64,000 nucleotides of DNA from Antedon mediterranea (taxonomy: Eukaryota; Animalia; Echinodermata), in the NCBI RefSeq assembly GCF_964355755.1, contig NC_092673.1:7130001-7194000 (forward strand). The letters are read 5' to 3'. Both the position numbers and the translations under genes were made by a program. Under the pieces are notes generated by a model that saw only the letters and a program-made list of their open reading frames with translations, was not told where the DNA came from and did not search any database. Every line of letters starts with the position of its first letter. The stretch's first letter is position 1. Below are positions 2,966-64,000 of this stretch, in pieces.

Positions 2966-5786
2966 TAAAAGACTGATACTTTATAGAAAGCATCGCATTA
3001 CATACAATGCCACTTCAATATCCTACCATTAAACATAAAGATGTGTTCTTGAGATCATTGTAGACAAGTAATAACTATCTCTACTCGTTACAATGCTATT
3101 GATTTTATATAGGCCTAATTATTCTATTAGTATTATGTAATCGAAGCAATACACATTGACCTCTTAGAAGGTTGGGGAAACCGTTTAACCTAATTCCAGT
3201 GGAGGTTGGGAATACCCTTTGACCCTCAAGCTTGGGGGACGTTTCTTTATCTGCCTCCGACTGTTCAGTTATCCCCTTATACACGCTAGGCCTAGGTCAA
3301 AGTTACGCATCTACTCAACATTGGAAGGTTGTTTAACTGCATTACTGCTGCGTGACATTGTTAGTGAAGACCATGGCCTGCATAGCCTAGCAACGGTAAT
3401 AGCTAACTTAACCTTATGATAAAAGGCAGTAATCAGACAGAGATGGAGTTATCAGCCTTCTGCGTATAAGGTCGATGTGGAGAGGTGTTTCCCGGCCTTA
3501 CATCTATGTAATGATCTTCAAAATGGCCTCTATACTTTTGCTTTTAAACTTAGTCCACAATTCAATAAATGTATTCAAGACCAGTAAAGAGCGACAAGAA
3601 CGTACTGTAATTTGATAGAACCATGGTCTCCGTGACATAAATATGTAACTTCGTAAATGTGTTTACACCAATTATAACATTTCAGGCCTAATGATTATAT
3701 TTGTTTTTTTCTATTTTATTAAATAAATCATTCAAATACCACCTGTCAATTGCAGCAACAGCTTGTGACTGTATAGGACTGGTTGTGTATTACATTTTGA
3801 ATTATAGTATAGGCCAGTTTGCAACTCTCTAATGAGGCTACCAACAATGTCACTGTGGTTTTAGTTTTATATGTAGCTCTTAAATGGGTATTGAGGTAGT
3901 TTTAAGACAGTTGAATTTCGGGAGACGAGATATTATACAGAACAGTCTTCAATATCGATCATTAAGCCACCACATCTGATAGATAGATAGATAGATAAAT
4001 TAAAAAAAGATTCTTTCTGCAAAAAGTTTCTACAATTTTAGAATGCCTACTAAAAAAATATTCATATAATATACGTATCTTTACAAAGGATGTTAATTTT
4101 TTTTTATCAATTATCTTCAAGGTATTGATTACTACTATAGTTTATAATTCTAAATTATAGTTATTGGTAATTTTGAATTCCATAAATTATGAAAGTCAAT
4201 TATAAAGTCATGGACGAATGAAAAAATAGCCGTAATTAAATTCTACAACTGATCAAGTCCAGGCACCTGAACCACCAAAGACCTTGTGTAAAATCCAGAT
4301 AAATTGAAGTCCAAGCACAAATAGCCTTGTGATGTCCAGGGCCTATTATTTGACCATAGGCCCACAGCCTTGGTCATGCTGATTGCTCATTATGCGGGGA
4401 AACAAAAATACAGTATTGGCTTATTTCTTGCTGCTATTAATAATAATCGGGCACCATAAAATCCAACCAAGGTTAAATGTTACGTAATCTCAAGGTAGAA
4501 CTAATTTAAATGTCAATTGATGAAATGATAATTTTCAATGCAGAGTAGTCCTCCAAGGTTGTATTGAGTAACGATAGATGTAACGTCTTCCGTTTTTAGA
4601 ACACTAAAAAAAACTCGTGGTCTAGAGTACCTCTTGGTCATTTCGAACCCTAATGATATGAAAAAGTCTCAGAAAAACATGGTGGCATTATATTTTTCAA
4701 ATTTACAATTTGGAAAATTCATGACTGGGCTATTATATTATTAACAAGATTTTATCAAACAAATAATAAAATTGAATAGTCTACCTGATTATTTACCTTC
4801 AGCTAAAAATTAGTAAAATATTAAATCACAGTTCGTGTATCATAAAAAAGAAAACGAGCACCAAATCAATATCGATTAATCATTTTTGACAGGTTGTTGT
4901 CAATGAAAGTGTTAATTCACTCCAACAAATATATTCTTAATTAAACTCCACAACTTATATCATTGTTACATATTAATACTATATCATTTCTAAAACTTTT
5001 TAAATTGCATCGACCTTTAATAAACTCGATACGAGATTTTCATCCTTCGGTACAAACGAGTTTATTCTATATTAAAATGGTATTAAAACATTGTTTGACG
5101 AATTTTTACATTAAATAACTTTGTTGTTTGTTTCATATTCTTTTTCTTTGTTCATAAAAAGTCTAGATTTTAAAAAGCATATTTTTATTTTATTTTAAAA
5201 TTCCAATCGATTATTGATATCTAGCTGGTTAATTGTGTTATCAGCCATACCATAGCCATACCTTTTCTACTGAGTACTGTATTTGAATACAATCATTTCT
5301 CAAAAATAGAAAATAAAAAATAATGCCTATGGTGTAGGCTTTTACAATACATTGTAAATTGAACATGTTTTATTAAAACGTAAAATTATTCAGAGAGTTT
5401 AAAAAAAAATGTTGTAAAAAATAAAATTAAAATAATGTTAGGCTTTTAACAATGTTTAATAAGGATTAGTTTAACAAGGATTAGTTTTTTTTTCTCTTTT
5501 GTGGCCAAAACACCACTTTTATTCACATTCATATTATTTCATATTACATAAAATCGTATTATTTAACTTGTAAATGTCGTTACAGTTCATAAGTAACATT
5601 TTTACATATATGAATTCTGTATTACTCCTTTTTTCATAAATTTTCTTATATTTTGCTATACACTTGACAGGATCATCATTATCATCTATCCCGTTTTAAA
5701 ATAGTTTTTTCACATTTTTATTTGTTTGTTTTCATTTTACAACCCGGATTATACAATATATTTATATACATGATAAAAAGAAAATA

Positions 5787-7343
5787 AACTAGAATTTAAT
5801 TCGTCACTTTGACGAATTATAGGTGATCATTTTTATCGCTTTACTGACATTAATATTTTTTAAACATGCACGTACGTTAACATACAATAGGAAAATGTTG
5901 ATGTATACCATCCTGATATACGCTATAGTGCTGAGTTGTGCCTATTATGTGTCATATACAATATGTACAGTTTATATCTATATACAGTGTAGCATAGGTG
6001 AAATTACGGGACCCACATCATGTTCAAATTTTTTGGTATGATGGAATTATCAAAATAAACTCGAAGATGACAATTTCGAAAGATAATAAATTGAGCAAAT
6101 AAATATAAGGATTGGAAGATAATTTGACACGTAGAAGCGCAATGCGCGCTCTTTGAAATTTGTATAACTTTGACTAAAGAAATTTAAAAACAACGTTTTA
6201 ACTTCAACTGGCCATATGATAACATCACAACATCCGATGGGCTTAATTTTTATATGAATTCATATCTACATTTATTCAGCTTTCATAATAAATTATAATC
6301 TTCAAGGTCACCTTTAATTCTGAAGAGCTATAACATATTCAAATGTATGGTGTAGCTGAAATTACACGACCTTGGTTATTAAAGTTTTTACACATGATGA
6401 CGTCATCAAAATAAAAATGTTGACAACTCTTGAGAAAGATAATTAATTGAGCAAGCACATACTAAAATTTCGGCGAAAATCGGGCTCAAATAACGGAGAT
6501 GCGCTCTATTGAATGTGATAACCCACACAAAAAGATAAAAATTACTAATTTTTAAATTAAAGTGGCCATTTGATGACGTCATACCATTTTGTATGTCTAA
6601 TGTGTACATGAATATGTATCTACAACCCAATGGCTTCCCGAATAAGTTAAAAAAATTGGGGGTCACCTGCCATTCTGAAGAGTTATATTCATTTTAAAAA
6701 GGCCTTATTTTTCACCATTTTCAGCACTTTGATGCAATTAATTTGCGCATTTTGTTATTTTTAACCTGCTCGTATAGCGTTATTTTAAGTCGGAACTGAC
6801 TCAAATTTGGTGAATGTACTAAGGATGGTGAGTAGAACGCGATTTGTATAAAAAAATTGCAATTTTTACGCTTTGTAAGTATCGCGTGCGCAAAATATTT
6901 TTTTTGCGCAGTAATTTTTTGAAACACGCAATTGGCCTAATTCATGCTCTAAATTGATTAAAACGTAATTTTGAGCTTTTTAAATTGCGCATGACCCTAC
7001 GTGCGCGCGCGTTTTTACTTGCTAATATTTTTACCCTTGACCTGAAGTTTACGTGTAGTGAATTTCATAAATATGTGATAATGAATTATGGATATATGAT
7101 TGATAATGTGATTTCACAAAATGGCGTATACGTGACGTCACGGGTGAGAGATCACGCTGAAAAGCTTATTATGGCTAAGTTAAAGTATTTGAAAGACATT
7201 GTGAAATTTTTGTGATCATTGCTATTCAACTTTTTGAGATATTTGATGAACAAAAAGTGTACAGAAAGAATAATAACAATAATAAAGATTTTGTACAATA
7301 ACAATAGGTGATCATTTTATTCTAAATGAAATGATCACCTAAT
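5787..7343 (-). mobile_element. Non-autonomous Helentron-like (HINE/DINE-1 architecture) element, family A
   Basis: On the minus strand: 5' subterminal repeat within a hairpin (AGGTGATCATTT...AAATGATCACCT, 7306-7340), then a TATT/TGTT simple-repeat tract. The matching 3' subterminal repeat TAGGTGATCATTT is at 5820-5832 and a terminal stem-loop TAATTCGTCA-ctt-TGACGAATTA at 5797-5819. A-rich junctions, no TSD. Degenerate internal duplication ~6060-6400 vs ~6410-6690. Confidence 0.75.
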
Positions 7344-8832
7344 AAAACAATAATAGCTCAGTACCACCAGTAACCCGTATCACAGTAATTCCTTTTCTGA
7401 TAATCGTATCAAATTAGAAATTATATTAGCATAATATTATTTCTTAAAGCTACCCATTTTTATATACTTTATTTCTTTCTGTATTGTTATATGTTTCACA
7501 TTCAATGTTATATAACATATTGCTTTTAAATGAATTCCATAACGATTTACCCACTGGCTTATTTAGTGCTGATAACATTTTTATTCTATAAATAGTAAAT
7601 GCTGCAAAAGTGTATAAATATAATCTATTAGCTTATCTCCCGTTCCTAGTATTAATTGTTTAAATGATATATTATTGTGGTTTAAACTTACAAAGATACT
7701 AAGCATTTTCCTCCAAAATTTCTGAATAAATCTACAACTAAAAAACAAATGATTTTCATTTTCAATTTCTCCACATTTGTCACACGTTTGTGTTTCCTTA
7801 ACTTTCCACTGATACAGCCGTTTGTTGGTAGGCAGTATTCTATGTAACATCTTATAATTGAATTGTGCTAGTTTCTTATCTTTCATTTTACATACTTTCC
7901 GTAACCAAGATGTTTTCCAATCTATGTTGTTATCATTGAAGTACTCTTCCCATTTTAGTTGTGACGTTGGAATAATGAAATATTCTTTCACAAACCATGA
8001 GTATATTAGTTTGGTAGTAATAATCTCATACTTGGTCCCAACTAACTCATCATTATCATCGCAATTGAAAATATCTACCTCCTTAATAATACGTTTCCAT
8101 TGAATTGGTATTGCCTTAATAATGCACAAAAACTCATTTAACCAGTTTGTTTTACATTGTAGTTTCACCAGTATTTCGTTTGATGTTAAAACAGTGTTCT
8201 TATTAACAATGTTTTTAATACTGATAATGCCACTGTCAATCCAATGCTTGTAGAAAAGCGATTTTTTTTTTAGTTTAACGTAGTGGTTTCCCCACAGTTG
8301 CTCATTCATTATATCGTTATAAGTTTCAGGTTTTTTTTAGAGATTCTGTTATAATTTAATTTAAGTAGCTTTTATCATATTTTTGTAAAACAGTGGAATT
8401 TTATCAGAATTAACATCACTAATGCTATGACATGACATATTAAGTAAAACATTAACATCACATATTTTTTTAATATAATACATTGGAATATTTTTCCATT
8501 TAGCACCATTATCATTCATAATTCTTTTTAACCAGCCACACATGAGTGCGTTAACATGAAGAGTAAAGTCAGGCATTTTAATGCCTCCCATCTCATCATC
8601 ACCAATTATAGTTTTTCTTTTTATCTTTTCCCTTTTATTGTTCCAAATAAAATTATATATTAGATTTGTAACTTGTGTATATACATATTTTGGAACATCA
8701 GTGATATTTGCAGCATATGTTAATTTAGATAGTGCAAGACTTTTCAGGATTATTATTCTACCAAAAATTGAAAGATTTCTAGCATTCCATTGTTTTAAAG
8801 TCTTTTATAGCTCTATTAATTTAACATCCCAG

Positions 8833-9535
8833 TTTTTAGTCGCGTGGAAGCGACTCTATAGTTCACTATGTCAGTCGGTTGGTCGGTCGGTAAACACTAA
8901 CTTGTATATGACCTTATCTTGATATCAGTTTAATCTAGCTTAGTCAATTTTTCACAGTATATTCCTTATGGCCAGGAATCGATGTGGTTATGTTTTCACG
9001 GTGCGCAATAAAAAATTACGCGGTCTACGCACGATTTAACGAAATCACGTTTTTACAGTAATCAAATCTTCACAACCATGAATCACAATTAAATACAATT
9101 TGGTACTCATAAATTTCAGGGCATAAATCATCATATGGCAATACAATTACGCGCGTAGCGCATGTAACGCATGCGTACGCGCGCTTAAAATTTTCAAAAT
9201 TTATTTTCGATGAAATAAGAGTACGTTTCAGGCAATTTTAAGCGTTTACAAAATTGCCATGAGTGCGCAGATTTTTTGCGCGCACTGCACGTTAAATGTT
9301 ATTGCGCACTCTTTTTGCCCGATTTCTGTTTTCTTGACTTACTTTTCAACTTGAAATTACGTTATACGAGCACGTCAAAACTGACAGGCTACGCACGTGT
9401 AAATTTAAAAAATATAACTGTTTTTAAACATTTCAACATTTTTAAACATGTTCAGTAATTTCGGTCAGTTGGTAGGTTGGTCGGTCGGTCGGTAAACACT
9501 AAGCACGCGACTGCAGCCATCTATATGGCCTTGTT
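8833..9535 (+). mobile_element. Non-autonomous Helentron-like (HINE/DINE-1 architecture) element, family B, copy 1
   Basis: Starts TTTTTAGTCGCGTGGAAGCGACT (subterminal repeat plus hairpin), has (GTCG)n-type tracts, and ends CACGCGACT (inverted subterminal repeat), a GCCAT-ctat-ATGGC stem-loop and TTGTT. Inserted in a T-run; removing it rejoins LINE ORF2 (...EECTR-NWDVKL...). Near-identical inverted copy at 49627-50418. Confidence 0.88.
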
Positions 9536-10054
9536 TCTGGTACATTCTTCTGTATTATACCCTACATATATGCCTAAAATTTTGATCGGGTGTTTTACCC
9601 AATTTAATTCTAAAGGCCTATCTATTCTGTTCTTCCATTTACCAATCAAAAAAGCATTGGTTTTTTTTTTATTTAGTGTCATTCCAGATACTTCACAAAA
9701 AAGTTCAATTACACTGACTGCTGACTTAATACTTTTGTCATTACCAACATACAAAACAGTATCATCGGCTAATTGGCTTATTCTAGCTTCTATGTTATTT
9801 TCATTATTTGGAAGTTTAATACGCGGTACCCTTATATAGTCATCTTTGTTTCTTATTCTAGATGCCATTACTTCAACCACTAAAATGAATAACAGAGCAG
9901 ATAGAGGACAACCTTGTCTAATACCTCTTTCCATTTTAAAATTGTTTGAAACCCAGCCATTTTTAACTGTGACACATTCAACGTTATTATATAATACTTT
10001 TACCCAGTTACAAAAGGAATAGTTTAATAAAGATTGTGTATTTCTTTTTATTAG

Positions 10055-10739
10055 TTAACATCTGAGGAAATAGAAAGGATTATGTCTGGTGAAGAATATG
10101 GCATGGTAGAAAGTAGTAGTAAAGCAAGTGCGATGAGTCCATCTAGAAGTGATGGTTTTTCCGACCAGTATTCGCCGAACTCAAACGGTACAGACAGCGT
10201 TTACTCGGGTGATTCTGATCGCCAGGACGGACAACAACCTCAGGTAGATGTTGGAAGACCTAGATGGTTTCCAAGTAACAGTTCTCTTCTTCCTGAAGTC
10301 GAGAAGTTAATCATAATTGAAATGCAACAACATCTCCAAATACCATGTGAATATACTTCAAAAAAGGTAGTTGATCCAATAGAACTGTTTGAGTTACTTT
10401 GTAAAATAATGGACGAGACACTGCATATTGAAATCCTGTGGGCTAAGAGAATGCCTTATGCCCACAAAGTCCCGATTGCAGATCTGACACTTATAATCAA
10501 AAGTACATGGGCAGAGAATCTAATTCTTGCTGCTCTTCACTCCAAACCTAAAAATGTTGTTGAAGATATTAGTAACATTTTAGAAAGTTATCTCCCGAAT
10601 GACGAAGAGCTTCGTCGATTTGGTCAGACTGGCATTGAGATTATAGACAAAATGACCACAACTGCTGCTCGATATCACAAGATGGCTGTTAACCTCGGAG
10701 AGTTCGTTTGCCTCAAGACAATCAATTTCCTTAACCCAG
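10055..10739 (+). CDS. NR6A1: Nuclear receptor GCNF/NR6A-like, hinge and most of the ligand-binding domain (internal exon)
   Basis: Acceptor TTTCTTTTTATTAG ends at 10054; donor G/GTATGA at 10740 (phase 1). Translation LTSEEIERIMSGEEY...ELFELLCKIMDETLHIEILWAKRMP...DLTLIIKSTWAE...EFVCLKTINFLNP resembles vertebrate GCNF (ISEEEIERIMSGQEF; AINFLNQ) as recalled. Confidence 0.92.
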
Positions 10740-10836
10740 GTATGAAGAATATGCTTTCTAATGATAAATGTAATGTGTTTCTTTTTGCCATACTGTAAAT
10801 GTTTTAATTTATTTTGTTTTACCACTATACTCTCCT

Positions 10837-11119
10837 AGATATTTCCCCCCTGAAATTTTTTATTTATTTAACTTAAATTATTTTTTTTGCATATGCCATT
10901 TTAATCTCACATGATAGTCATTAACTGTAAAATTTCCCTGAAAAATGTGTAATTTAAAAGCAAAGAATAGACAAGTTGTCTGTTTTTTTGTTAAATTTAA
11001 CAGTTTATTTTTCCATAAGTGAAACAATTATTTTTGAAACTACTACAAAATGACCTACAGTATTTAAAGTATAATTTTATCAATCTTAATTTTTCATGTT
11101 TTTGGGGGATAATACATCT
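10837..11119 (+). mobile_element. Kolobok-like MITE copy filling most of the last NR6A intron
   Basis: Shares ATATGCCATTTTAAT..CACAT and ATAAGTGAAA and the terminal GGGGATAATACATCT-TTAA with the copy at 25647-25990. Confidence 0.7.
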
Positions 11120-11221
11120 TTAAATGTGGGCACATTAATTCTATATATACAGGTATTAGGCTACATAGCAACCATGTAAATTGCTAAAACATATTACTCT
11201 TTATTTTATTTTATTGAATAG

Positions 11222-11520
11222 AAATAGAGGGCTTATCCGATTCAACAGCCATTGAAGAATTGAGCAAGCATTACTGTTTTTTACTACACGATCATTCGCA
11301 GCTGAACGACAACGCCCAAACGGGCCGCTTTAGGGAACTCATGATGTTGTTACCAGACGTGCGTTTTCTCGCGCGCAAATTTAACGAAGTGTCCGTAGAC
11401 AATATCCCTCTACTGTTCAAAGCCATAACGCATGCGTGCCAATTGAGAAACAGTTCTACACCGAATGCCGTTGATAGCGGGCCAACGACATCTTCAGCAG
11501 TGTCAATGATTACTGAATGA
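11222..11520 (+). CDS. NR6A1: Nuclear receptor GCNF/NR6A-like, terminal coding exon
   Basis: Acceptor AG at 11220-11221, in phase with the previous exon (G+AA=Glu). EIEGLSDSTAIEELSKHY...RFRELMMLLPDVRFLARKFNEVSVDNIPLLFKAITHAC matches the recalled GCNF C-terminus (DIRGL...RFPDLMMCLPEIRYIAGK...LPLLFKVVLHSC). TGA stop ends at 11520. Confidence 0.92.
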
Positions 11521-11721: not shown

Positions 11722-13374
11722 TTGAATGCATTACACTGTATTATTTAAAATATGAATGTCCGATTAAGCCTGGTTAGCAATAGAAACAAAACGGGTAAAG
11801 CTATTACATCATAGAAAATAATCATTTCTTCGTATAGGCCTACTCAGTATTGCATGGTTTTGTAGTTATATTTACATGTAGATTAGTTTAGTTGTTTGTA
11901 GTTTGTTTAGTTTTGCACGGTGGTTTTAAGATTTTATTTGAAAAAAAAAAAATTAATGTTCAGTAATTATATTTCGATTACAGCTCCCTTCAATTCGCTC
12001 TCTCGTGCTATAGGCCTTACTTCAGTATAACTTGATTTACCCATAATTATTACTCTCATAAAAATATGAAATATGGTAAACGTTACTAATTATAAATGTG
12101 ATTTTAAAGTAGAAAGAAGGATAAAACGAAATAGAGAAATATATACTGGTAAAGTATTATAATATCGTAGTATTGTGTACACTAATCAAAATGATCTTTT
12201 ACAAATTAAACATTCAGCTGAATGTTAGGTCTAAAGAATAGGCCATAACAATGAAATCTAGATTGCGACATGTTTTAATTAAGTGCCAACAATGATATTA
12301 CAAACGCTAGTACTGTAGTCTTTTATATTTTAATTCTTAATTATGCACCTTTGTGTAGACCTAACAACAGTGTGGTAGTTGTGCTATGGTGTACGTTCGT
12401 TCTCAGCTGATTGTATTGGGCTTAAAATGCAATTTTTATTACATTTCAAATGCTGCATATTTTCATATATTTTTCAACAAATGCAATTTTATTGTTTTGC
12501 ATATTTTTTTGTTATACCTATATATTTTTAATTTGGCAGAAATTTAATTTTCGATTATGAATGATCACTGTAAGTTTTTGAGTCTTATTCGTTCATTTGA
12601 GACCAAATAAAAAAGTATTAGTTTAGTCCGGTTATTTGAATTGTTTTGTTTAATTAGAGGCTTCTATTTTATTGTGGATGTACCGAAATTAGTAGTTTAA
12701 GGGACAACCATGTTTACACACTTCGGAATGCTTGACGACCATATACATTTTCGATGAAAACAATTAATCATTCCAACGTTATCTATCATTTATATGTATA
12801 CAGTGTTGATTTAAGGTAGATAAAGATAGTTAAAATACTCAGCTTAAATGCTGAACACTTTCTAATTATTGTGCTGTAGATAAGTTTTTGATTTTCCTTA
12901 TATTTTACATTATTTTAAGTTTATTTAATATCGTTTGTTATTTTTCCAATCGTTTTATTTATATAAATCGTTACATTCATTTAAACCAATATGGTTTCAT
13001 CTATTCTTTGAAGGTACAGTTGTTATATTATTTATAATTTTTGAGATATCGGTTTATGAGGTTGAAAGTACTTGAAACTGTCAGTGCTGTCATATAATTC
13101 TAAAATAATAGGGATTGGGATAAAATAATACTTTCAATTATGATATTATTTTAATACAGTGCCTCATTTCGGCATTGTAAAATTATTGACTTTTGAATAA
13201 TAAATCTGGATTAAAAGTTTACATTATTTTAAGGTTATTTATCATTTGTTACTTTTCGAAACGTTTTAATCTCTGCAACGAAATTGAAATCCTACAAAAT
13301 GGGGTTTATCATCTAAAATTAATGGACTTATAGCTTATACATAAATACTAGCTTATTAGGTAATTTTGAAAACT

Positions 13375-13645
13375 GATATAATTGTCCCCCTAAAAATATT
13401 CCATTTTAATGTCACATAATAGTTAATCACTAAATTGTCTATCAGACAATGGGTTTTGGTTAAAATTAAGCATTTCTTTTGTGTTTTTATAAGTAAAATA
13501 ATTATTTGTGTTGATTTTTTTTCTACAGAAATTATTAACTTTATTAAAAGTGCAAAATGGCCTATTCAAATTCTGATTTTATTCATCTTTATTTTTCAGG
13601 GTTTTTTGTTGGGGGGGGGGGGGGAGGGTAGAATACATTTTTAAG
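13375..13645 (+). mobile_element. Kolobok-like MITE family, internally deleted copy
   Basis: ATTGTCCCCC start, CCATTTTAATGTCACATAAT core, GGG...AATACATTTTTAA end. Confidence 0.65.
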
Positions 13646-16600
13646 GAAAGTCACTGATTTAAATAAAAGAAAAAAGTTTTGATGAATCTGCTACATCTAC
13701 TAAGTGTTATAAAACAACCTGAAATGAAAGACTGTATTTAGGCCTACTACGTGTCTTCTTGGAAGTTCCTGGATACAATTAAGCGCGGCTTGAATGGTCC
13801 TTCACAAAATTATGGCCAGATTTCGTGGTCAAAGTATGTTTCAATACATTAGGTACGTTGAAAGTTAAGCCTCTGACTAATCTACACTAAATCTATTTTT
13901 AATAAAAATGAGGGATAAAAAAGAATAGACCACGATGTTCTTTATTTACCACGATCTTTGGACATGAACGTGTCCAACGCATGAGGGCGATAACAGGCAA
14001 TGTCCTTCGAGGTGAATGACCTCGCTTTAGAGGTCATATAATTTGCCAGGTCTTTAAAAACTATAGTCCGCGAATCCTTGGGTTTAATGGAAAGACAACA
14101 GACAGTAATACTGGTAATAATTGAGTTTTATGTCCTAATATATGAGTCTATAATTGATATTAGTGTTCTTATACAATGGATTTGAATATGATTACTGTAC
14201 ATTTTCTGTATAAGAAAACAGTAAACTATTAGTATAAGAAATGATATACTATAGTAATAATATGTAGCCTAGTTAGTCCGTTTTATACGTGAGTTTAGTT
14301 ACCTTAACTGATGAAAATTGAAGAGAAAGAGAGAAACATCTCAGCCTGAAATAGAAATTGAAGAAAAATCTTAGCTGGTGTTATTGGTAGATACTAATAA
14401 TGTATTATTGTATTATCAGTTCCTCATCCATAGTTAGGCTCAGGGAAATACGGTTCTAATTTTGCTATGAAGGAAATAAATCTTTTATTTTCTTCTTCAT
14501 GTTATATTATAAATAAATAAAAAACATACATTTAGGCCTAATCTTTCTAAAACTAATATTTTGTTTACGATACTGATTTTCATTTTACATGTAACACGCG
14601 ATAGACCATGTTGTTGTAATGACTGAAATTCATGTAAATAGAATGGTTCATCTCACATACAAAAACAAAGAAAGAAAGAAAGAAATGTCGATTAGACACG
14701 CGAGGGAATGGTAAAGGATTGTTTTTCAGTTTGTATGAATAGGCGTATTCGACTTATCACTCGCAAACACCTCGCAGTCATCTACTGTCATTGCTTGCAT
14801 ATAGAGAAGAGTTTGAGGTGAGGCGTTAGATTTCAGATTATTTAAATTTGTATTTTAGGCGCTTTGGGGCAATCTGCTGATTGTTCAAAGCGATATATAA
14901 ATTCGAAAAACAGCCCTGTCGGATAAGCCTAATAACCATATCCATTCAATTCGCTGAAAGTTTTGAATAAGTCAATAACGCCCTCTATTATTGATTTTGT
15001 ATAGAATAATACGGTTTGATCTCCGGCAGTATTTTCTCTGTTTTGAGGTCAGCCAGTATCTGGGTCAGACTACTTTTTCAACATAATCAACACAAAGGTC
15101 TAACTAAAGCAATTTATATTTCGATTTAGAGAGGAATTACGTAGACTTATGTTATGATGTTATTCATATATTGACCATTCATGGCGGATTTCCATGATAT
15201 TAACAGTGCAGTGTTATAGCTCGATGATTTAAATAGACACCGATGAAGCCGAATACACATGGTTTTCTTTCTACGGTATTCGTTTGATGTACCCTCAGGC
15301 CGGAAATATAATGTAAAATAGATCTATAGAGTACTATATTATTTCGGATATATATGTAATCACTGTGGAATACATAATTACGTTGATAGAAACCACCATT
15401 TCTTTTGACATCATTGAGAATAGTAGGCCAAATCGGTACACAAAGCCGATTTGTATTGACGCCCTCTATTAAAACTTTGTCTTATACTGTATTATGCGTA
15501 CCTACGGTACGCATATTTGATGAGTGTAAACTTCAATTTCATATAGTGTGAAAAGGGTAATATTAATCGTCTTAATAGTAATAATACACACTTAGGTAAC
15601 ACCAGTATTTGTAATGTAATTTATAGCTCTAGCGCAGTGGGAATAGCCACTTTCTTTGTTTTTCGCAAATAACGGTCTTTAGTAGTCTTTTTTATAAATG
15701 AATTCACCAGGATTTGAACGTGACACCGGTAAGCAACCACCGATCTACACATTCGCGTATACACCTACTACAAGTTATATGGTTGCCTGGCTATAATCTC
15801 TTAAATGGATAACAACAGATAACACCATATTATGCACAAAGAGATTTTCAAAACCACATGAAAGCGGCAAACTCAAAACAAGAGGAAAACAGTGGCTTAG
15901 CAGTGGATCAAAATTATGTACAATTACTAAATATTAATAATAATACATACATAGTATGGTCGGGAAATTGCGTTGTGTATCTGGAGGCAATGTTTCACTT
16001 TTAGCCTTTTGTAGTAGCTGGTGGTGGGCAATGGCAATGGGCCATGTAGTGTGCTGGAAGATGTCCGATCGTTAGTAGGCCTAGATGTCAGGGCGGATCG
16101 GGGGAGGGGGGGGGGGCTACTTTTCTGTATACATTAGTTGACATTTGACATAGCAGACTATTTGTTTTATCTTTTGTGAACATATCAGACTATTAACATT
16201 ATGTTAACGAACCCCGTTTAAAAAATCCGTAAACAGCTGGAAAAGTTCATAGTAGAAACTCTTGAATTAGAAATAATTATTGTATACCAAAATCATTTAT
16301 AAAATTATAATACTTTTAATTTCTCTGCCTAATATTTTTACTCACAGAACCCGAAAACAATCAATAATTTTGTTTAGAAAACAGAAAAAAGTCTGTATGG
16401 GCCAGAGGCACAACGTTATTGAATAAAAAGCCAGGCAAAGCGCGTGGATGATAAATGGGCATTTTGTCAAGAATGTCGTGAACATACACTGGTCTAATCA
16501 TGTAGGAAAACAAAAAATCCTCCATGGTCTATGCAACTTTACAAGTGATGTTCAAATATAATAGACAGAAATGGTGAGCCCCGATGACATATGATATAAA

Positions 16601-17444
16601 TCTCCTAATGTTTTTGTATGCGGTAATGATATTAAACAATTAAATGTTCAAAAATGTGTAAAAGCAATGGTCTATTATGTTCGTTTACCACTTCGGTCTA
16701 TATTGGGCCTACGCAGTGTTCTTGAGTCAGTTTTGTCTAGCCTACACTGCGCTCAACCATAATGCGTGTACTATTGTGTAAGAGGGAACCTCAAGCAAAT
16801 TGAGCATTTTGTATTTATACGCGAATTTATCAATCTATTACAATTGCAAGGATTGTTTTTTTTTAATAATTGATAGTCGTAGTCTTGCCTTTTCCCCTCT
16901 GGCATTGACATTGTCGATTACTGTCTACATTTTCTATATCCTCATTTGTTTTTAGCGTATCAACATTGTGACTCCTTACGTCCGTAATATTAATTAATTC
17001 TGCACAAAAAATGTCGAACATTAATATAGTCAACTAGCGAAAAGCCGAGCAAGTTACGGTAACTTAAGAAAATGATCCTAATACAAGGTAGTGATATTAA
17101 ACAATAAATCGTACTAAGTTTTCACGCACGTTCATTATTTTTCGTATCAGAATAATATGTAGGCCTACTGAAATTGTTATTGTCGTCAATTTATCACGTG
17201 ACCCTGCAGGCAATTACTGTTGTATTTCAGAGAATTAAAAATGATTTAAACAATACGCAGAACTTGATTAATTATACCTCGCGTAATACATGTTGCTGAG
17301 TTTGAGAAACAAGAGACGATATTGATGAGAAAGAAATCCAAACATTTAGATGAAGTGTAAACACACTTATTACTAATATCTGTGTAAGCGCTTATCCGTA
17401 TACGAGGGAAATTATCAGTTAAGTTTTACATTGTGGTCACTCTG

Positions 17445-17630
17445 AGATGAATTGTCCCCCAAAAAATCAAGATTAATGAAAAAAAAATCAGACCTTGAAT
17501 AGGCCACATGACTAAAAAAATAATGATTTCACTTATAAAAAGACAAAATAAACGGAAACTATTTTGTGAAAGTGAATAACAATTATGTGACATTAAAATT
17601 GCATATTCAACAAAAAAAATACACAATTAT
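17445..17630 (-). mobile_element. Kolobok-like MITE family, degenerate copy
   Basis: AGATGAATTGTCCCCCAAAAAA start and ATTATGTGACATTAAAATTGCATATTCAACA core, same orientation as 25647-25990. Confidence 0.6.
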
Positions 17631-18051
17631 ATTTATTGGGGTTTTCTGCGGTGCGTGAACATTTTCTAGTTTAATTTGTAAGCCCATGTCCACAGGAGAT
17701 ATTTCCGTTCGGGTGGTGAAAATATTCAGGGGCTCACATCGATACGTATTATGTACCAGTCTCGAAATAAAATCATAAGTCCCTTGTCAACACATTTGGA
17801 TTGATCAGTTTTGCCCATCGACCTGTCTAATGTTAATCTTTTCTTCTTATCTTTGGAAAATTGTCATCATCGAAGGCTTCTGTCCATCAAGTTATATTAA
17901 TTTGCTTCATAAGGACAAGATATAGACTCATTACAATTTTAATAAGAATGTTTTACATTTTAAATACGATTTATTTTAATCGCAAAACTGTCCGACAGTA
18001 AGAAAACTCGACAAGTATTAACGACAGACGGATTCAAACAGATATACACAA

Positions 18052-18188
18052 AGATTGGTTCCCCCTTGGACGCAGCGCAAGGAAGTAAGCAATTGATTAA
18101 CCACGATGCGATAATCGTCCAAACTGTCGCTTGTGATTGGTCAATTCAGGTGCCTTGTCGTTGTGTTGCGTTCAAGTGCGAGCCAAGC
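18052..18188. mobile_element. Short palindromic MITE family (TTGGTTCCCACTAG termini), degenerate copy
   Basis: ACGCAGCGCAAGGAAGTAAG...TCGCTTGTGATTGGTCAA...TTGCGTTCAAGTG; related to 22749-22908. Confidence 0.6.
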
Positions 18189-20541
18189 GCCAACTACAAA
18201 TGAGGGAAATCTCACCCTGGTTCTGCACCATACATTGTGCCGTCCTAAAATGAATTGCAAACAATAAGAAGAATAGTTAGCATGGATAGTCTATATGGTA
18301 AAGCCCTATCATTACGGTAGTTTTTAAAAAGTGTAGGCCTAAATATACTGATACTACTAATACAATGTTGAAATGAGCTGCAGCCAAGCTTAATATCCCA
18401 CACCTCTATCGCGTATTTATGCAAATATTTATGTAAATAACAAGCGTTTATCTAAATTTTTATTTTATTTATTTATTTTTTATTCATTTTTGTTTTATAT
18501 TTAGGCCTAGCCAATTTTAGCACCAAGTATATTAATCATACTGTCAAATTTTAGAATTTGATCACCAAATATATTCTTATGGCGGATCCAGAATTTTGCA
18601 ATACGGAGTCTAGGACCTAAACAATTTTCGTTCTGAGTTAACTTAAGTGTATGCCTACAGTTCATTTTTGTTAAGTGCGGGGCGGGTGGTCCGGGTCTCC
18701 CCACTCCCTTTCCCACTTCTTTTGGTTTTACACGTTTAAATTAAATTTCTAAATCTGAATATGCCAAACTTTATGTCACCAGTTCTCTATGATATATAAT
18801 TAGTAATTCGAATTACAAATGTTTGCTGCTAGGGCATTGCGGTGACGCGCAGATTTAAGATGGGATGAAGGATACATGACAAGATACTGAAAGACTGCAC
18901 GCAATCGTGACTCAGTGAATGAAAAAAGGATAGCAGAGCCAGTGGCATGGAGCCAAGTCAAAGATAACGATCAAGTCGGAAGTCGAGTAATTTATTAAGG
19001 GTTTCTCTTGATGTTCGCTTAAAATATATTACGTATGCAGTATTAAGCACGATATCAACGACGTGTTGATTATGTCATGTTTGTGATTTAATTCAATTAT
19101 TGGTTGTTAGACATTATCTATATATCTTTATATATATTCAGTTTTAATAAAAACAAATTGTAAATAATAATTTGTCATATTTAATAAACATATTATAAAT
19201 AGCAATAAGTATTTATTTTATTATTATTGTATAAATGTTTATTCTAATCGTAGCGATATTGCGGTAACAACAACAGAAAAATAAATAAAACGCTCACAAA
19301 ATTCATTGAATGAATTTCGACTACCAGTTTGTTCGGACCAAAATTTTCTACTCCATTTACCAAAAACCAAGCTTATAACCAATCACAAGTGACAGTTCTG
19401 CACTTTATTTTTGCCGTATTAAAGTATGCGTATAAAGTTCTTAGATGATAAAGATTAAGATGGGACTTGAGTAGAATTATGCTGAGGTAGGCAATTCTAA
19501 GAAGAGACAGCAGGAACTAAAATTATTTTTGGCAATAATATTTGGAGTTAACACACCGAACAACTAATGTGTTTTAATCAAACGCGGGGGCATGTGATAT
19601 TACCATTTTACTCAGCAATGTCATTTTGCAAAACCGATCAAGTTGTGTATAAATATTTGTATATAAGTTATTACCTGTAAGCCTGTAAATAATTGAATTC
19701 GCCTGTATGAATTCAATTCTACTTATTACGCATTAAGGTAGATGTTGTTGTGAATGATACACCTTTGGTTATACAGTATATAATAACGAAAGTATTTCTC
19801 TTATTTTTTTTAAAAATTTATTTCGGTATATAAAACATTACAAAAAGCAGAACAAGTCTGAAATTATTGTAGCGCAATATATATATATCCAACTAGCTGA
19901 CTAAATCTCCAATGCAATGGCCTGTTTATGCGTACAAAGAATGATACAGTATTGGTAGGCATACTTTAGGGGGAACAGTTTCTATTTTCGCACCGCTCCT
20001 TTAGATAATCTGAGAACGGAATCATTAGGAAACAGTTGCCATGCGGTAGCTTATTGTTTATGAAAAAATGGGTATTTGGAAACGTGGACTGGGCATGCTC
20101 AAACCCAAAAGCACGTCTTGGAGAATAGAGTCTATAAACAATTTTTTAACGTAGGCATTTATCATTGAATAATGGTAACTTCATTCTTCTATGGTAAATA
20201 GTTTAGTGAATTGTGTGTGTATATCCTGGGTGTGTATAGGCCTAGATGAAGAATTGCTTGATTATTAGTAAGTACGGTACGTTTGCCGGCAGCTGTACTA
20301 TATCTGACCCTAACTCGACCTCTGATTGTTAAACAAATAAAATTGATCACTATTTATTAAATTATTAAAAAGAATATCAATTAAAAAAACATTATTTAAT
20401 GACAAAAAAGCAATAATTAAACTAAATTATTTCTTGCCACCATGTGAGTGGACGGTACTTACTCAACGGACCTATATAGTAAATTAAAAGTTGTCAAAAG
20501 ACAATACGTAGGCCTATAATAATTCATGTTTGTACAGAATT

Positions 20542-20833
20542 ACGGTTGCAGTTTTGAAAAATTATGTTACAATACAGCCCTTGTCTAGACACATTTTTTA
20601 ATTTGCACAGAAGTGTATCTTTCAAATAATTGTGTTCACAGAATTTTATATTTGAAATAATTCTGTGAACAGAATGTTTTCCTTCAAATAGTCCAGAGAA
20701 TTACTTCAAAGTAAAAATTATGTGTAATTTATTTTCAAACTACAGTACATAATTAGTGTGCAAAGTAAAAAATTGTGTCTACACAATGGCTGTATTGTGA
20801 CATAAGTATACATGTCTCAAACGGCGCCCCCGT
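20542..20833. mobile_element. MITE with long imperfect inverted repeats
   Basis: TTATGTTACAATACAGCCCTTGTCTAGACACA...TTTGCACA (20562-20609) pairs with TGTGCAAA...TGTGTCTACACAATGGCTGTATTGTGACATAA (20757-20805). ACAGAAT occurs on both flanks. A similar terminus ACGGGGCGCCGT begins at ~63936. Confidence 0.7.
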
Positions 20834-21460: not shown

Positions 21461-21549
21461 AGCTTGGTTTCCACTGTACGCACAGCCGAGTTGACCAATG
21501 ACAAACGACTGTTCGGATAATCCATCGCTTGTTCTAGTGGGAATCAAGT
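21461..21549. mobile_element. Short palindromic MITE family, internally deleted copy
   Basis: AGCTTGGTTTCCACT...TTGACCAATGACAAACGA...TTCGGATAATCCATCGCTTG...CTAGTGGGAATCAAG. Confidence 0.65.
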
Positions 21550-26640: not shown

Positions 26641-26654
26641 AGTAATATAGCTTA

Positions 26655-35704: not shown

Positions 35705-35706
<2 letters not shown>

Positions 35707-35760
<54 letters not shown>

Positions 35761-47039: not shown

Positions 47040-49600
47040 AACTGATCGAGTCGAGACAATAGGCAATTCGTCTTCAAGAAAATATAAAAATAGCTACATA
47101 CAGTCATGTCAATAGGCAATTCGTCTTCAAGGAAATATAAAAATAACTACAATCATGTCAATGGACAATTCGTCTTCAAGAAAATATGTTCCTTGTCTTC
47201 AAGACAATAGATAAAGTAACTAATGTCAAGACAATGGGCACTTCGTCTTTAAAAAAAATAACATGTTACCAGGGAAGAGTGAAATTAATTTCACTCTTTT
47301 CCATTATGTTATACCTTGATTCAAGACAACATATACAATAACAATAGTCAAGACAGTGACAATTCGTCTTCATGACAATATAACTATTCTTCAAAGACAA
47401 TAAGACAAGACAGATACTAGCGTATACCTTCAAGGTAAAATATATTGTACAAGGCAACATGTAACGGGTCTTTATAAGATATATATATAACTAAGGTTGA
47501 AGAGGTACCTATATTTAAGACAATAAAGAAATGGTCATACATATGCCTAACTGGTTTTCACCTGTCTGGTTTTTAAGAGAATGTACCTTGTTCTGAGACA
47601 TGGTCAATATAAAATGTTTTTCAAGAGAATAGGTACCTTGTTGTGAGACCTTTTCTTCAACAAAAACTTATATTTTTTAATAACTTCGGGGCTATATAAA
47701 TGGTCTTCAGGAGAATATGTACAGTTACCAGTGTTCTGAGGGAATTATATATAACTAGGTTTTCAGAATAATATTGTCTTTAATACAATAGATACCTTGT
47801 CTACAAGACAATAGATAATAGATACCTGGTCTTCAAGAAAATAGTACCTGGTCTATAAGCAAATAGATACATGGTCTACAAGAGAATAGATACATTGTTT
47901 TCAAGGCAATAGATACCTGGACTTCAAGACAATAGTACTTGGTCTACAAGCCAATAGTTACCTGGACTTCAAGACAATAGATGCCTGGTCTTCAAGACAA
48001 TAGATAATAGATACCTGGTCTTCAAGACAATAGTACCTGGTCTACAAGCCAATAGATACCTGGACTTCAAGACAATAGATGCCTGGTCTTCAAGACAATA
48101 GATAATAGATACCTGGACTTCAAGACAATAGTACCTGGACTTCAAGACAATAGATACATTGACTTCAAGACAATAGTACCTGGACTTTAAGACAATAGAT
48201 GCCTGGTCTTCAAGACAATAGATAATAGATACCTGGTCTTCAAGACAATAGTGCCTGGTCTACAAGCCAATAGATACCTGGACTTCAAGACAATAGATGC
48301 CTGGTCTTCAAGACAATAGATAATAGATGCCTGGTCTTCAAGACAATAGATAATAGATACCTGGTCTTCAAGACAATAGTACCTGGTCTACAAGCCAATA
48401 GATACCTGGACTTCAAGACAATAGATGCCTGGTCTTCAAGACAATAGCTAGACAATAGTACCTGGTCTACAAGCCAATAGATACCTGGACTTCAAGACAA
48501 TAGATGCCTGGTCTTCAAGACAATAGATACATTAACTTCAAGACAATAGTACCTGGACTTTAAGACAATATATACATTGACTTCAAGACAATAGTACCTG
48601 GTCTACAAGCAAATAAATACATGGTCTACAAGAGAATAGATACATTGTTTTCAAGGCAATAGATACCTGGACTTCAAGACAATAGTACCTGGTCTACAAG
48701 CCAATAGATACATTGACTTCAAGACAATAGTACCTGGACTTCAAGAAAATAGATACATTGACTTCAAGACAATAGTACCTGGACTTTAAGACAATAGATA
48801 CATTAACTTCAAGACAATAGTACCTGGACTTTAAGACAATATATACATTGACTTCAAGACAATAGTACCTGGTCTACAAGCAAATAAATACATGGTCTAC
48901 AAGAGAATAGATACATTGTTTTCAAGGCAATAGATACCTGGACTTCAAGACAATAGTACCTGGTCTACAAGCCAATAGATACATTGACTTCAAGACAATA
49001 GTACCTGGACTTCAAGACAATAGATACATTGACTTCAAGACAATAGTACCTGGACTTTAAGACAATAGATACATTGACTTCAAGACAAAAGTACCTGGAC
49101 TTCAAGACTTTAGTACCTGGACTTCAAAATAATATTATCTGGTCTACAAGACAATATAGGTACCTTGTCTACAAGACAATATAGGTACCTGGTCTACAAG
49201 ACAATAGTACCTGGACTTCAAGACAATATATGTACCTGGTCTACAAGACAATATAGGTACCTGGTCTACAAGACAATAGTACCTGGACTTCAAGACAATA
49301 TAGGTACCTGGTCTACAAGACAATAGATACTTGGTTTCCAAGGCAATATAGGTACCGTACCTGGTCTACAAGACAATACAGGTACCTGGTCTACAAGACA
49401 ATATAGGTACCTGAATATAGGTACCTGGTCTACAAGACAATAGATACTTGGTCTCCAAGGCAATAGATACCTGGTCTTCAAGAGAATATGTAGATGGTTT
49501 TCAAAACATTATGTACCTGCAAGGTCGTCAATAGAAAACTGGTCTTCAATAGATAACTTCAGGACAATATAACTGGTTTTCAGAATACAGTAATACCTCA
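47040..49600. repeat. ~2.5-kb satellite of ~21-24-bp monomers with higher-order blocks
   Basis: Monomer TACCTGG(T/A)CT(T/A)CAAGACAATAG(A); homogeneous 47800-49480, degenerate at both edges. Remnants resume at 50419-50530 after the inserted element. Confidence 0.97.
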
Positions 49601-49626: not shown

Positions 49627-50418
49627 AACAAGGCCAACAGCCATTAAGTCGCGTGCTACAATGCATAGTGATACCGGACCGACAGACAGACCGACAGACC
49701 GACAGACAGACCGACAGACAGACCGACCGACCGAAATTAATGTTTAAAAATGTTGAAATGTTTAAAAACATTTATATTTTTTTAATTTACACGTGCGTAG
49801 CCTGTCACTTTTGACGTGCTCGTATAACGTAATTTCGAGATCAAAAGTAAGTCAAGAAAACAGAAATCGGGCAAAAAGAGTGCGCAATAACATTTAACGC
49901 GCAGTGCGCGCGCAAAAATATGCGCACTCATGGCAATTTTGTAAACGCTTAAAATTGCCTGAAACGTACTCTTATTTCATCGAAAATAAATTTTAAATAA
50001 ATTTTAAGCGCGCGTACGCATGCGTTACATGCGCTACGCACGTAATTGTATTGCCATATGATGATTTATGCCCTGAAATTTATGAGTAACAAATTTTATT
50101 TAATTGTGATTCATGGTTGTGAAGATATGATTACAAACGTGATTTCGTTAAATCGTGCGTAGACCGCGTAATTTTTTATTGCGCACCGTGAAAACATAAC
50201 CACATTGATTCCTGGCCATAAGGAATATACTGTGAAAAATTGACCTAGCTAGATTAAACTGATATCAAGATAAGGTCAGAAAGCGATAAAACGCATAGTG
50301 ATACCGGACCGACAGACCGACAGACAGACAGACCGACAGACAGACCGACAGACAGACAGACCGACCAACCGACCAACCGACATAGTGAACTATAGAGTCG
50401 CTTCCACGCGACTAAAAA
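49627..50418 (-). mobile_element. Helentron-like non-autonomous element, family B, copy 2
   Basis: Reverse complement of 8833-9535 with longer (GACA/GACC)n tracts; same termini (AACAAGGCC...AGTCGCGTGCT and AGTCGCTTCCACGCGACTAAAAA). Confidence 0.9.
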
Positions 50419-50984: not shown

Positions 50985-51222
50985 ATTCATAGTGCATTTT
51001 TTATTTGTTCCTATAGAATATAATCGAATTTGAACATATAATGAAAGCTGCAGTGGTACAATTGTTAGGATATCTGCATATATCAAGATGTTCCGATATT
51101 TGAATTCGGAACATCTTGATATGCAGATGTCCTAACAATTGTACCACTGCAGCTTTCATGATATGATTCAAATTCGATTATATTCTAGGCCTATAGGAAC
51201 AAATAAAACATGCACTATGAAT
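50985..51222. repeat. Near-perfect ~240-bp palindrome (foldback MITE-like)
   Basis: ATTCATAGTGCA...ATCAAGATGTTCCGA pairs with TCGGAACATCTTGAT...TGCACTATGAAT; arms ~110-115 bp, loop ~10 nt. Confidence 0.95.
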
Positions 51223-51763: not shown

Positions 51764-53454
51764 TATGTCCTGTTTCTACTGACCCCTATGATAGAGACGA
51801 AACGTCAGGAAATGGTAAAACAATTTGACTTATATAATTAATAATCGAATAATTAATTTAATTAATAATCGAATAATTAATTAAATTAATTAATCGAGTA
51901 TTCATTGGCAAACGACACATCAAGTTTTGGATACAATTATTTGGATACAATTATTTGTATCTATATACACACGACGAATAAGTATGAATTGTTTTGAATA
52001 GAAAACAACAATACCAATATAAAAATACGGCACACAAGAAACAATTGGCTAATGTTATATCCTGCACAATCCGGACATACCAATGAATTACTATTATACT
52101 AAGAACCTTGCTAAAATTCGAAGATTTACTTATTAACTCAAATCTTACAAGTCACCGAAGTAATAATTTCCTATTCCCGTGTAATGTTTAAAGAAACTAG
52201 TGAACGTGTTTGGTCACATATGTGTCAAGGTTGGTTTTACTAGTCGCATAGTTGTGATTTTCCCCCTCCAAAGTGCTGGTAACTCAGCAGCGCATCAGCA
52301 AGTTGGTATCGACCTAAGAAAAGTTCTTTATTGATTTCTTTTGTATTAATATTATGTGATTGATATCTGAACTCGGTCACGTGATTTTGCCGCTTTTTTG
52401 TATGTACATCCATGAGTGTCCTACTTTTAAATTCTTCCAGCTGAAGATTTCCTTTTCCAACAAGCGTTTTTCCATTTATTTAAAAACGTTGCCAATTTAT
52501 TTTAATGTATATAAAGCGGATTAAAAGCCATTTAGATGCACTATGCAAACATTTATTTGTATTAATGTTATCGACTATTTTGGCCCTACTACATTTTCAG
52601 CGGCCGAAATTCACAATATTCAAAGAAATCGAAGTTAAATTTGATAAAGCACAACTTATTTATCCGTGGATAAAGTTGGCCAATCATCATCACCATAGAT
52701 AAATATGCATTTTCCTACATAAAACAAAAGAAATATGAAAATGTATTAATTATAGAACTATTTGGATAACCATTTTATGTTGCCTTTGATAAAAAATAAT
52801 AATACGTCCAATCAAATGACGTCATTATTAGTAATAGCAATAATATCGTGACGAGATTGTATTGTTCTTATTGACAATTACGTGATTTAATTAGATTTTT
52901 AAAAATATTATTTTTATTAGACAGCATCAATGGTTGTGCTATAATTATAGTTCTAGAATGAAAACCTTTACAATTTCTTTTGTTTTATGTAAGATAAAAT
53001 GTATAACTATACTACAGTATAACTAACTGTGTCGCAGCATTAAGGTTTCGGTTTATGGTCTATGATACAATGCGAAAGATGTAGGCGATACATGCGATTT
53101 ATATACCCGAATATTCCTATTATTATTCCTGTTTCAGTAGGCCTACCGAGAATCGGGTGTACGTGTGATTGTGATGCCTAGAAAGTTGCAACATAACACG
53201 GAAAAATAACCATGGTTATGTGATTGGCAAGTTATTGTTGGGTGTTTGTGAAATAAATAAAATAAATAATTTAATTTGTCTCTCATGGCTAATTGTTCAT
53301 TAAATTTCCTACTGATTTTCTTTTTAGTTTCAGTTTCACAAATGGTGTGACTGTTCCCATACAAAAAAAAAACAAGGAGAAGCGATAATAAACAAGAAAT
53401 ATTTCTTACAAAAAACGCTGCTCGCTTATTAAAAAATGATTTTTTATGTCAAAT

Positions 53455-62349: not shown

Positions 62350-62584
62350 TAAGATAAAGAAAAAAAAAGAAACTTTCTTAAAAGTTACATTTTGTTTGCC
62401 TATGCCGTTGTGCCTTTGTTTCATATTACTATTTATAAACTGTTTTGTAACAGGGGGTTTCTACTTATAAGCTGTGCTTCAGAGATTCCCCCTTTCCATT
62501 CTTTCATTTTTGTAATGAACATTTATGTATGTTAATGGTTTTATTTTGTTGTGAATGGAAATAAAGAAACAAACAACAACAAAC
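62350..62584 (+). mobile_element. Probable 3' UTR of an L2/Crack-group LINE
   Basis: GGGGG...TATAAGC.GTGCTT...CCCCC stem region, T-rich tract, GGAAATAAA followed by a (AAAC/AAC)n tail. Confidence 0.5.
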
Positions 62585-64000
62585 ACGTTTACCAGCGTGT
62601 TTTAGATAATCCAAATTTGACCATTTCGTTTTATCAACCCGTACGATATTTCTTATGACTAAGCCAATTTTTGTTATTCCAACTCAGGGGAGGGTGGGCA
62701 AAGTCTTCATATTCTCTCTTCGTTTACATTTAATAGGTCGACCTGCCTGGTCCCCTGCACTCCTCTAATTCCCGGTTCCTTCTGCCGTCTTCCACACTGT
62801 TGAACAGAATAACGAAAACCGGAACCAATTATTAAACAAACGTATCTGTATGATTTCACTAGTATAGTTTCTGTGAATGATTGCACTAAATTCTCATTTA
62901 TTATGTTTTTTAATTCGTTCTAAATGAAGATTTAAAAATAAAAAATATACTTTGATCCCGAAATGGATGTAATGTATTTGAAAACCACATTGTAAAATTC
63001 TTCACTCTCCAATCATGGAGATTTACATCTCTGTTCTCCAATAATAGAGGAACTCATGCTCCAACCATGGAGATAGCTCCAGGTGATATTCGTATTCGTA
63101 CTATAATAATATAGTTTATACTGTGTTTATAACGCTTTTAAGATATGTATCAGGGCCTATTTTTGAGACACAAATGTGACAGTTAGCAATCAAAGTATAC
63201 GGTAGAGTTAATCGGTATTTCATCATTTCAACTATAGTCATAAGTTTCTAAAATGCAACAACAGGAAAATAAAGTGTTTTCATCTGGTTTTATATTAATA
63301 TCTGTATACGGTTCACGTTAAAACAGTAATTAAATACACACACGTAACGTATTTACGTACTGGTTTAATTAAAGAATTATTGGAAAATAAAATGAAAATG
63401 GGGTTTTTTTTATGGATCATCGCATTATACCGGTAACAATATAATTTATTCCATTGGTTGGATTGGTACCGCCCAATATTTAACCAATATAGGCCTAGTA
63501 CATAAAATACAATAATATTTATAGTTTCCATTGATTTGTTTGTATGTTCAGACTTGCGAAGTACATGTTATTGTTATAATAGAATAGATAGAATTAAATG
63601 GGAATAATGAATTTCACTCTAAATCAATCCTTCTATCATGTTCCAAGTTTGAGAAAATTTTCAAACAATTGGCATGCAGGCTGTATACTCTTTCTTTTTT
63701 ATGGATGGCTGTTAATATAATATTATGGTATATCATTTCATTTTTCTTCATTCATGCCAATAAAATGTTACATAACAGACAGCTGTAGGTTGAAATGCTT
63801 AAAAGACACTTTAAAAGAACATGACACGGATTTCCTTAATGTCATTTGATAATATTCAATGTGATGATGAGATTCAAGTTTTGAGTCACTCAAAACCGTT
63901 TACGATAATATCGTAAACTGTTTTACGTTTTTCATACGGGGCGCCGTCCAAAACATTTTTGTTTATATTTTCCATGGCACACAACCATTTGCATCATCAA

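Follow-up and report, generated by a model that had tools for sequence, protein, structure and literature searches.

Results

The stretch of DNA analyzed here (the window) comprises 64,000 nucleotides (nt) of Antedon mediterranea (NC_092673.1, positions 7,130,001 to 7,194,000) and carries exons of a nuclear receptor, fragments of long interspersed nuclear elements (LINEs), Helentron-like repeats and, dispersed between positions 3110 and 63497, many copies of one 8-letter palindromic word, TAGGCCTA, with which this report is concerned. The exons at 10082-11520 match the ligand-binding domain of nuclear receptors in Pfam. The best solved relative of this receptor was FTZ-F1 (E 3.8e-10), and a protein search returned a single match, an unnamed protein with 37% identity; the initial annotation had spoken of NR6A exons, of which the nuclear-receptor domain was recovered and the NR6A label was not confirmed. 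On the minus strand, an L1/Tx1-type LINE fragment (7581-10054) ends just upstream of a receptor exon and is interrupted by a Helentron-like repeat (8831-9493) that is 91% like 49702-50326. The LINE fragments match RVT_1 and zf-RVT in Pfam.

The word TAGGCCTA was found 39 times in the 64 kb window (32% GC), with a mean spacing of 1.59 kb and unrelated flanks. Base composition predicts 0.56 copies, an order-2 Markov model 0.68 and an order-3 model 2.4, so that the excess is about 58-70-fold on the first two expectations. The initial annotation had counted at least 39 copies and estimated an excess of about 80-fold; the count and all 14 coordinates that it cited were reproduced, and the excess is strong but smaller than estimated. 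After masking with Tandem Repeats Finder, which removed 3,402 bases of the window, 38 copies were left against 0.63 expected, and the word ranked first among all 8-mers. No base is fixed outside it: with strands pooled, the 78 adjoining bases are A in 25, C in 10, G in 21 and T in 22 cases. The words contain 78 of the 6,802 TA dinucleotides in the window. None lies in the LINE, Helentron-like and exon intervals, which were drawn by hand and in which 3.7 would be expected from the TA count (P = 0.02); this absence had also been noted previously. Neighbours with one mismatch numbered 37 against 15.1 expected, corresponding to a decay of about 7% per base, and the words are therefore old if they are scars.

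For 5 of the 39 sites a related copy was available for comparison, the other 34 being without a partner in the window. A clean insertion at a single TA was seen at two of the five (51186 and 25878); a third (40566) is near-clean, and 35605 and 53138 are ambiguous. The first clean case lies in a palindromic element (50985-51222), the left arm of which serves as an empty-site control in an arm-to-arm alignment. Where the left arm reads a single TA (51014), the right arm reads TAGGCCTA (51186-51193); all 24 flanking bases compared are identical, and the gain is a clean six. At the second, two stacked fillers, one of the CGG class and one of the GGCC class (25873-25885), add 11 nt relative to the single TA of the repeat family, and the family copies at 1518 and 53456 have a single TA where 25878 holds both fillers. 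Contigs were also available from runs X1-X4, which come from one sample of one individual; the assembly may derive from this sample. The consensus of the loose-end contigs before 25884 (from 138, 115, 120 and 151 contigs of X1 to X4, respectively, with an agreement of 0.64-0.70) continues into a single TA, which indicates that the empty state is that of the family and that the copy in the window is 11 bases longer.

The copy at 40566-40573 stands in one arm of a miniature inverted-repeat transposable element (MITE; 40550-40740), the other arm of which has one TA, as does a copy at 46270; here an adjacent C is also lost and the net gain is five. In the palindrome 35575-35710 one arm holds TAGGCCTA (35605-35612) and the other has equal length with other letters. 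At 53138-53145 the word stands where the ends of related MITEs read CAG-TA-CCG, which is suggestive, with only the right flank aligning and the left diverged. An ungapped search for empty sites with strong partners returned 1 of 38 for the 8-mers, 0 of 18 for the G-type 7-mers, 0 of 30 for the CCG words, 1 of 42 for the CAG words and 0 of 300 for controls. At the cleanly comparable sites, TAGGCCTA is a six-base insertion at TA. The initial annotation had stated that the word demonstrably replaces TA, citing the palindrome and the MITE: the palindrome bears this out in full, the MITE shows the change but not its cleanness, and as a general statement it holds cleanly at 2 of the 39 sites, 34 having no related copy in the window.

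The window also holds 18 companion 7-mers between 2007 and 60112, seven TAGGCTA and eleven TAGCCTA, against 5.0 expected for both together, or about 13 above chance. Their frequency had been noted before, and one coordinate given for them, 14266, is corrected to 14265. Among the 32 pairs of TA-N3-TA words the three most enriched were TACAGTA/TACTGTA (42 vs 13.5), TACCGTA/TACGGTA (24 vs 6.1) and TAGCCTA/TAGGCTA (18 vs 5.0). The CCG-class 8-mer TACCGGTA occurred 6 times against 0.5 expected, while the CAG-class 8-mer TACATGTA was not enriched (2 vs 3.1). None of the ten TA-N2-TA words was enriched in the window, with TAGGTA/TACCTA at 22 vs 32.6 and TAGCTA at 6 vs 9.9. A 27-base-pair (bp) tandem array of 16 copies at 36747-37177 was also observed; it contains TACCGGTA 13 times and has a 202-codon open reading frame.

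One of the CAG-class words could be used for calibration: TACAGTA at 11056-11062 (plus strand) is a clean insertion of five bases, and all three paralogous copies have a single TA. The CAG and CCG words beside TAGGCCTA thereby calibrate its reading as a scar. Half-words at 13562 and 17500 were rejected as scars, being part of the repeat family's own sequence. A five-base difference at 9054 was not counted as a TACAGTA scar, since another insertion accounts for it in an alignment free of mismatches. It concerns a Helentron-like copy (9049-9060) in which the five inserted bases are the reverse complement of the adjacent ones; this could be an inverted micro-duplication or else a TACAGTA scar with one substitution, the former giving the best alignment.

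Scar words were also found chained through common TAs, with six such chains in the window. Two copies of TAGGCCTA share a TA at 42456-42469, TAGGCCTA and TACCGGTA at 32321-32334, and TACAGTA and TAGGCCTA at 22526-22538, and at 43944-43960 a TAGCCTA is joined to two TACAGTA.

The same words were then counted in public contigs. Loci were selected by the presence of two TAGGCCTA within 30 nt, giving 121 metagenome loci (348 kb) and 121 viral loci, and before counting each selecting pair was masked together with 100 nt around it, as were tandem repeats. Such pairs occur in about 67,000 metagenome stretches, as estimated from 1/64 of the collection, and in about 200 stretches of the viral collection, the two collections differing greatly in size. 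In the metagenome loci TAGGCCTA was counted 118 times against 3.2 expected, in 52 of the loci, TAGGCTA/TAGCCTA 112 times against 29.8, and the 9-mers TAGGGCCTA/TAGGCCCTA 19 times against 1.4. TAGGGTA (23 vs 23.4), TACAGTA and TACCGTA were at chance, which means that the 7-mers accompany TAGGCCTA independently of the CAG and CCG classes. The viral control loci did not have the signal (TAGGCCTA 7 vs 4.7, 7-mers 32 vs 32.3, 9-mers 0 vs 2.0), and selection by pairs alone is thus an insufficient explanation. In repeats of the metagenome loci, L069:1009 and L034:1088 each show a clean gain of five bases from TA to TAGGCTA, and a six-base insertion at L030:6294 is less clean; clean 7-mer insertions of this kind were seen in the metagenome loci only. 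A Pfam scan showed animal-type genes in several of these loci and that a few others are bacterial, indicating a mixed pool.

In the same metagenome loci, TACAGTGTA/TACACTGTA were enriched (15 vs 3.9) alongside TACATGTA. TA-flanked elements starting with CACTGTG were observed at L034:12351-12550, L042:10583-11369, L060:1400-2343 and L071:1231-2158, and are a candidate source of the parallel scar series of TACATGTA and TACAGTGTA/TACACTGTA.

Several other elements were recorded in the window. A TA-flanked MITE with CAG...CTG ends (20573-20795) is a candidate source class for TACAGTA/TACTGTA scars. Two small TA-flanked inverted-repeat elements (23626-23707 and 38895-39031) have CAC...GTG ends, and TACACTA/TAGTGTA was not enriched in the window (10 vs 12.0). 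The element at 43696-44774 has terminal inverted repeats (TIRs) of about 90 bp that start with CGGG, an 8-bp target duplication (43688-43695 and 44775-44782) and a second, nested pair of inverted repeats (43783-44459). A complex satellite with units of 22-25 bp and higher-order periods occupies 47057-49560.

Discussion

From the over-representation of TAGGCCTA, its insertion at TA at two sites, the spectrum of accompanying words and their decay we infer a transposon, its ends and a repair path. The word is likely to be the excision scar of a TA-targeting cut-and-paste transposon with GG...CC ends, which would probably read GGC...GCC. Such an element would insert at TA and duplicate it. On excision the transposase would cut a few bases inside each end, leaving an identical short 3' overhang on both flanks, and the gap would be closed by end-joining. 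With a GGC overhang, a full three-base overlap with a central mismatch would give TAGGCTA or TAGCCTA, a two-base overlap through the self-complementary GC would give TAGGCCTA, and a one-base overlap TAGGGCCTA or TAGGCCCTA. Each scar would then offer two TAs to renewed hits, from which stacked words could arise, and point mutation would later erode the scars, here by about 7% per base. This decay is too low (37 vs 15.1 one-mismatch neighbours) for the excess of about 13 7-mers to be likely deletion products of TAGGCCTA. Families with CAG ends and CCG ends, likewise targeting TA, would have left parallel scars in the same DNA, and scars of three end classes (GGC, CAG and CCG) appear to be present in the genome. 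In the window, 8-mers were enriched for the GGC and CCG classes, the last two bases of which are self-complementary, and not for CAG; annealing of a 3-nt overhang through its last two bases would explain both the 8-mer of the CCG class and its lack in the CAG class.

Several observations weigh against this reading. A TA-GGC...GCC-TA element, which the initial annotation had predicted, was searched for and not found, either among the matches listed in the 64 kb window or in the 121 metagenome loci (348 kb of contigs). None of 63 open reading frames, a small sample of which 62 came from a list of 216, matched a transposase family in Pfam, including those of DDE transposases. In the available part of the pogo element table of PMC7386202, a GGC start is given for one fungal FotA, with a TAA duplication, and one primate Tigger row, neither of which matches. 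An empty counterpart is lacking for 34 of the 39 sites, those at 35605 and 53138 are ambiguous, and 40566 requires an extra deletion. The 9-mers TAGGGCCTA/TAGGCCCTA were absent from the window, with 0.2 expected. The stacking signal is weak: of 76 outer TAs 5 are shared, against 2.0% (P = 0.018), and the tandem pair enters this count twice. TACATGTA was enriched in the metagenome loci (22 vs 6.1), and 8-mers can thus form without an annealing overhang. Finally, among the contigs listed from runs X1-X4, no six-base loss was seen at the 15 covered of the 17 TAGGCCTA sites in 13001-32900. Only five of these 15 lie where allelic differences were visible, in a contig comparison dominated by repeats; with about 7% decay and allelic differences below 1%, few polymorphic scars are expected, and this result is weak either way. 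At 30544-32526, contigs of X2 and X3 exceeded the window in length by 11 and 5 bases, which would be compatible with scar insertions on the other haplotype. In locus L017 a hairpin flanked by TA-GGCC was considered as a TIR element and rejected, as it is the start of a larger element bearing a microsatellite.

If a transposon wrote the word, the third base of its ends is only probably C. The proposal of GGC ends, a 3-nt overhang and GC annealing was made in the initial annotation; it fits the enriched 7-, 8- and 9-mers, but a 2-nt GG overhang gives the same 7- and 8-mers. In that alternative the ends would be GG followed by any base, the cut would lie 2 nt inside, both overhangs would be filled to give TA-GG-CC-TA, and the 7-mers would arise by loss of one base. 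This whole route is rather unlikely taken by itself, and what credence it has is part of that given to the transposon, not in addition to it. Cuts 2 nt inside are known for Tc1, Tc3, mariner and IS630, according to the available text of bioRxiv 10.1101/659086, and an excerpt of PMC3520976 cites TACATGTA, which the metagenome loci hold in excess, as a footprint of Tc1. The window also holds about three TAGGCCTA for each excess 7-mer. However, the 6-letter words TAGGTA/TACCTA and TAGCTA are not enriched in the window, whereas Tc3 footprints are mostly 6-letter (bioRxiv 10.1101/659086, as excerpted), and the 9-mers of the metagenome loci demand a third base. Given the 2-nt cuts of Tc1 and Tc3 and both the footprint and the metagenome enrichment of TACATGTA, our preference for a 3-nt GGC overhang over a 2-nt GG overhang is a modest one. 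GGG ends are disfavoured, because they would also yield TAGGGTA and TAGGGCTA, neither of which is clearly enriched.

A process other than transposition, such as template switching in replication or repair or the combined activity of a nuclease and a polymerase, might instead write a fixed palindrome at TA. We regard this as improbable but worth weighing, since no matching element turned up either in the window or among the 121 loci. TAGG adjoins the site in both internal controls of the initial annotation (51186 and 40566), and the difference at 9054 is best read as an inverted copy of adjacent bases, so that such events do occur here. Yet TAGG or CCTA lies within 15 nt of only 7 of the 39 inferred empty sites, against 14.3% of 6,087 background TAs, and local template switching is therefore disfavoured in general; for single sites, including 51186 and 40566, it is possible. 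The filler is moreover fixed while the flanks are unrelated, and the parallel CAG and CCG series fit known transposon ends.

Selection of TAGGCCTA as a protein-binding site, with the palindrome serving a dimeric factor, is very improbable. A dispersed palindrome in non-coding DNA near a nuclear-receptor gene would suit such a role. The vertebrate ZFX motif is AGGCCTAG. An analogous word in Phytophthora has been interpreted as a binding site in the excerpted part of PMC3520976. Nevertheless, TAGGCCTA occurs as insertions within repeats, has a decay of about 7% per base, is stacked with other scar words and has no flanking consensus. An artefact of assembly or library, which the origin of X1-X4 in one sample, possibly that of the assembly, might suggest, is already largely refuted and has a negligible chance of being correct, as long X1 contigs are identical to the window across 15 TAGGCCTA sites, decayed neighbours exist and unrelated public contigs also hold the word in excess.

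Excision of a transposon is thus the explanation that we prefer, and a wider version of it is tentative, with somewhat less than an even chance of being right: an undescribed TA-targeting lineage with GGC ends would have been active in many unrelated animals, writing TAGGCCTA into their genomes a number of times of the order of 100,000 and leaving scars that far outnumber surviving copies. The once hyperactive family and the genome-wide process that the initial annotation predicted are likewise extrapolations from the window. If so, the ratios of 7-, 8- and 9-mer scars would be a fossil record of end-joining in the germ line. Excision footprints are familiar from assays, and here natural scars have apparently accumulated into the most over-represented 8-mer. 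A very common motif would then record past transposition and not a regulatory signal, and motif discovery would misreport it. The scars would tally past jumps that left no element, with their decay dating the activity; three end classes in one genome would allow the influence of the overhang on end-joining to be tested; and from TAGGCCTA the ends of a transposon family could be predicted and then sought directly. Should no GGC element exist, a process of the host may be placing a fixed word at TA.

In the literature searched, which did not cover most subscription journals, no paper that describes TAGGCCTA as a scar came to light. Several DNA transposons come near it in single features. According to the available parts of PMC4482050, PMC10045372 and PMC8533490, the TIRs of ISL2EU usually start with GG, and ISL2EU, PIF/Harbinger, Zator and Sailor all prefer AT-rich targets; the target duplications are AT (within A-AT-T) for ISL2EU, TWA for PIF/Harbinger, 3 bp for Zator and TATA for Sailor. 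ISL2EU was rejected as the source, the duplicated unit here being TA with free flanks, as were PIF/Harbinger and Zator, which duplicate 3 bp where no base is fixed outside TA here. Sailor (DD82E) was also rejected, having GT or CC ends and a TATA duplication, neither of which is found here.

Among pogo elements, some Fot and Fot-like members begin with GG, and 50 Fot-like and 54 Fot elements have a TA duplication (PMC7386202, available part). The GG-starting Fot and Fot-like rows among the matches listed from that part carry TAA or TAAA as target duplication and are of fungal, algal or oomycete origin; the first 20 of its 26 places with TAGG are Tigger rows. A Fot source that duplicates TAA or TAAA is excluded by the free base beside TAGGCCTA, and TAGGGTA is not enriched; TA-duplicating Fot or Fot-like members would pass this flank test. 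Passer (pogo, DD35D) has the TIR motif CCGTA, a TA duplication and footprints of 0-4 bp, as described in excerpts of PMC7386202 and PMC9976928. Its ends fit the companion class of TACCGTA/TACGGTA and TACCGGTA. As a source of TAGGCCTA it was rejected, since CCG ends cannot yield GGCC, and the window yielded no Passer copy.

As in footprints of IS630-Tc1-mariner-pogo elements, TA is duplicated here around a short filler and mirror 7-mers are present. By this analogy TAGGCCTA appears to behave like a Tc1/mariner/pogo footprint and may belong to that group. The Tc1 footprint TACATGTA of Caenorhabditis elegans (PMC3520976, excerpt) is, like TAGGCCTA, a palindromic 8-mer with two bases per end between TAs; it differs in having CA/TG and not GG/CC, is described there as rare and is not enriched in the window. 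TACAGTA/TACTGTA, the most enriched of the 7-mer pairs, is the canonical footprint of Sleeping Beauty in the available text of PMC6943129. Sleeping Beauty and other Tc1/mariner footprints, as presented there and in the excerpt of bioRxiv 10.1101/659086, share with TAGGCCTA the insertion at TA, the TA duplicated around a few terminal bases and the mirror 7-mers. Unlike those of Sleeping Beauty, the words studied here have GGC, GCC or GGCC as filler, are dominated by the 8-mer and would be natural scars, accumulated to about one per 1.6 kb.

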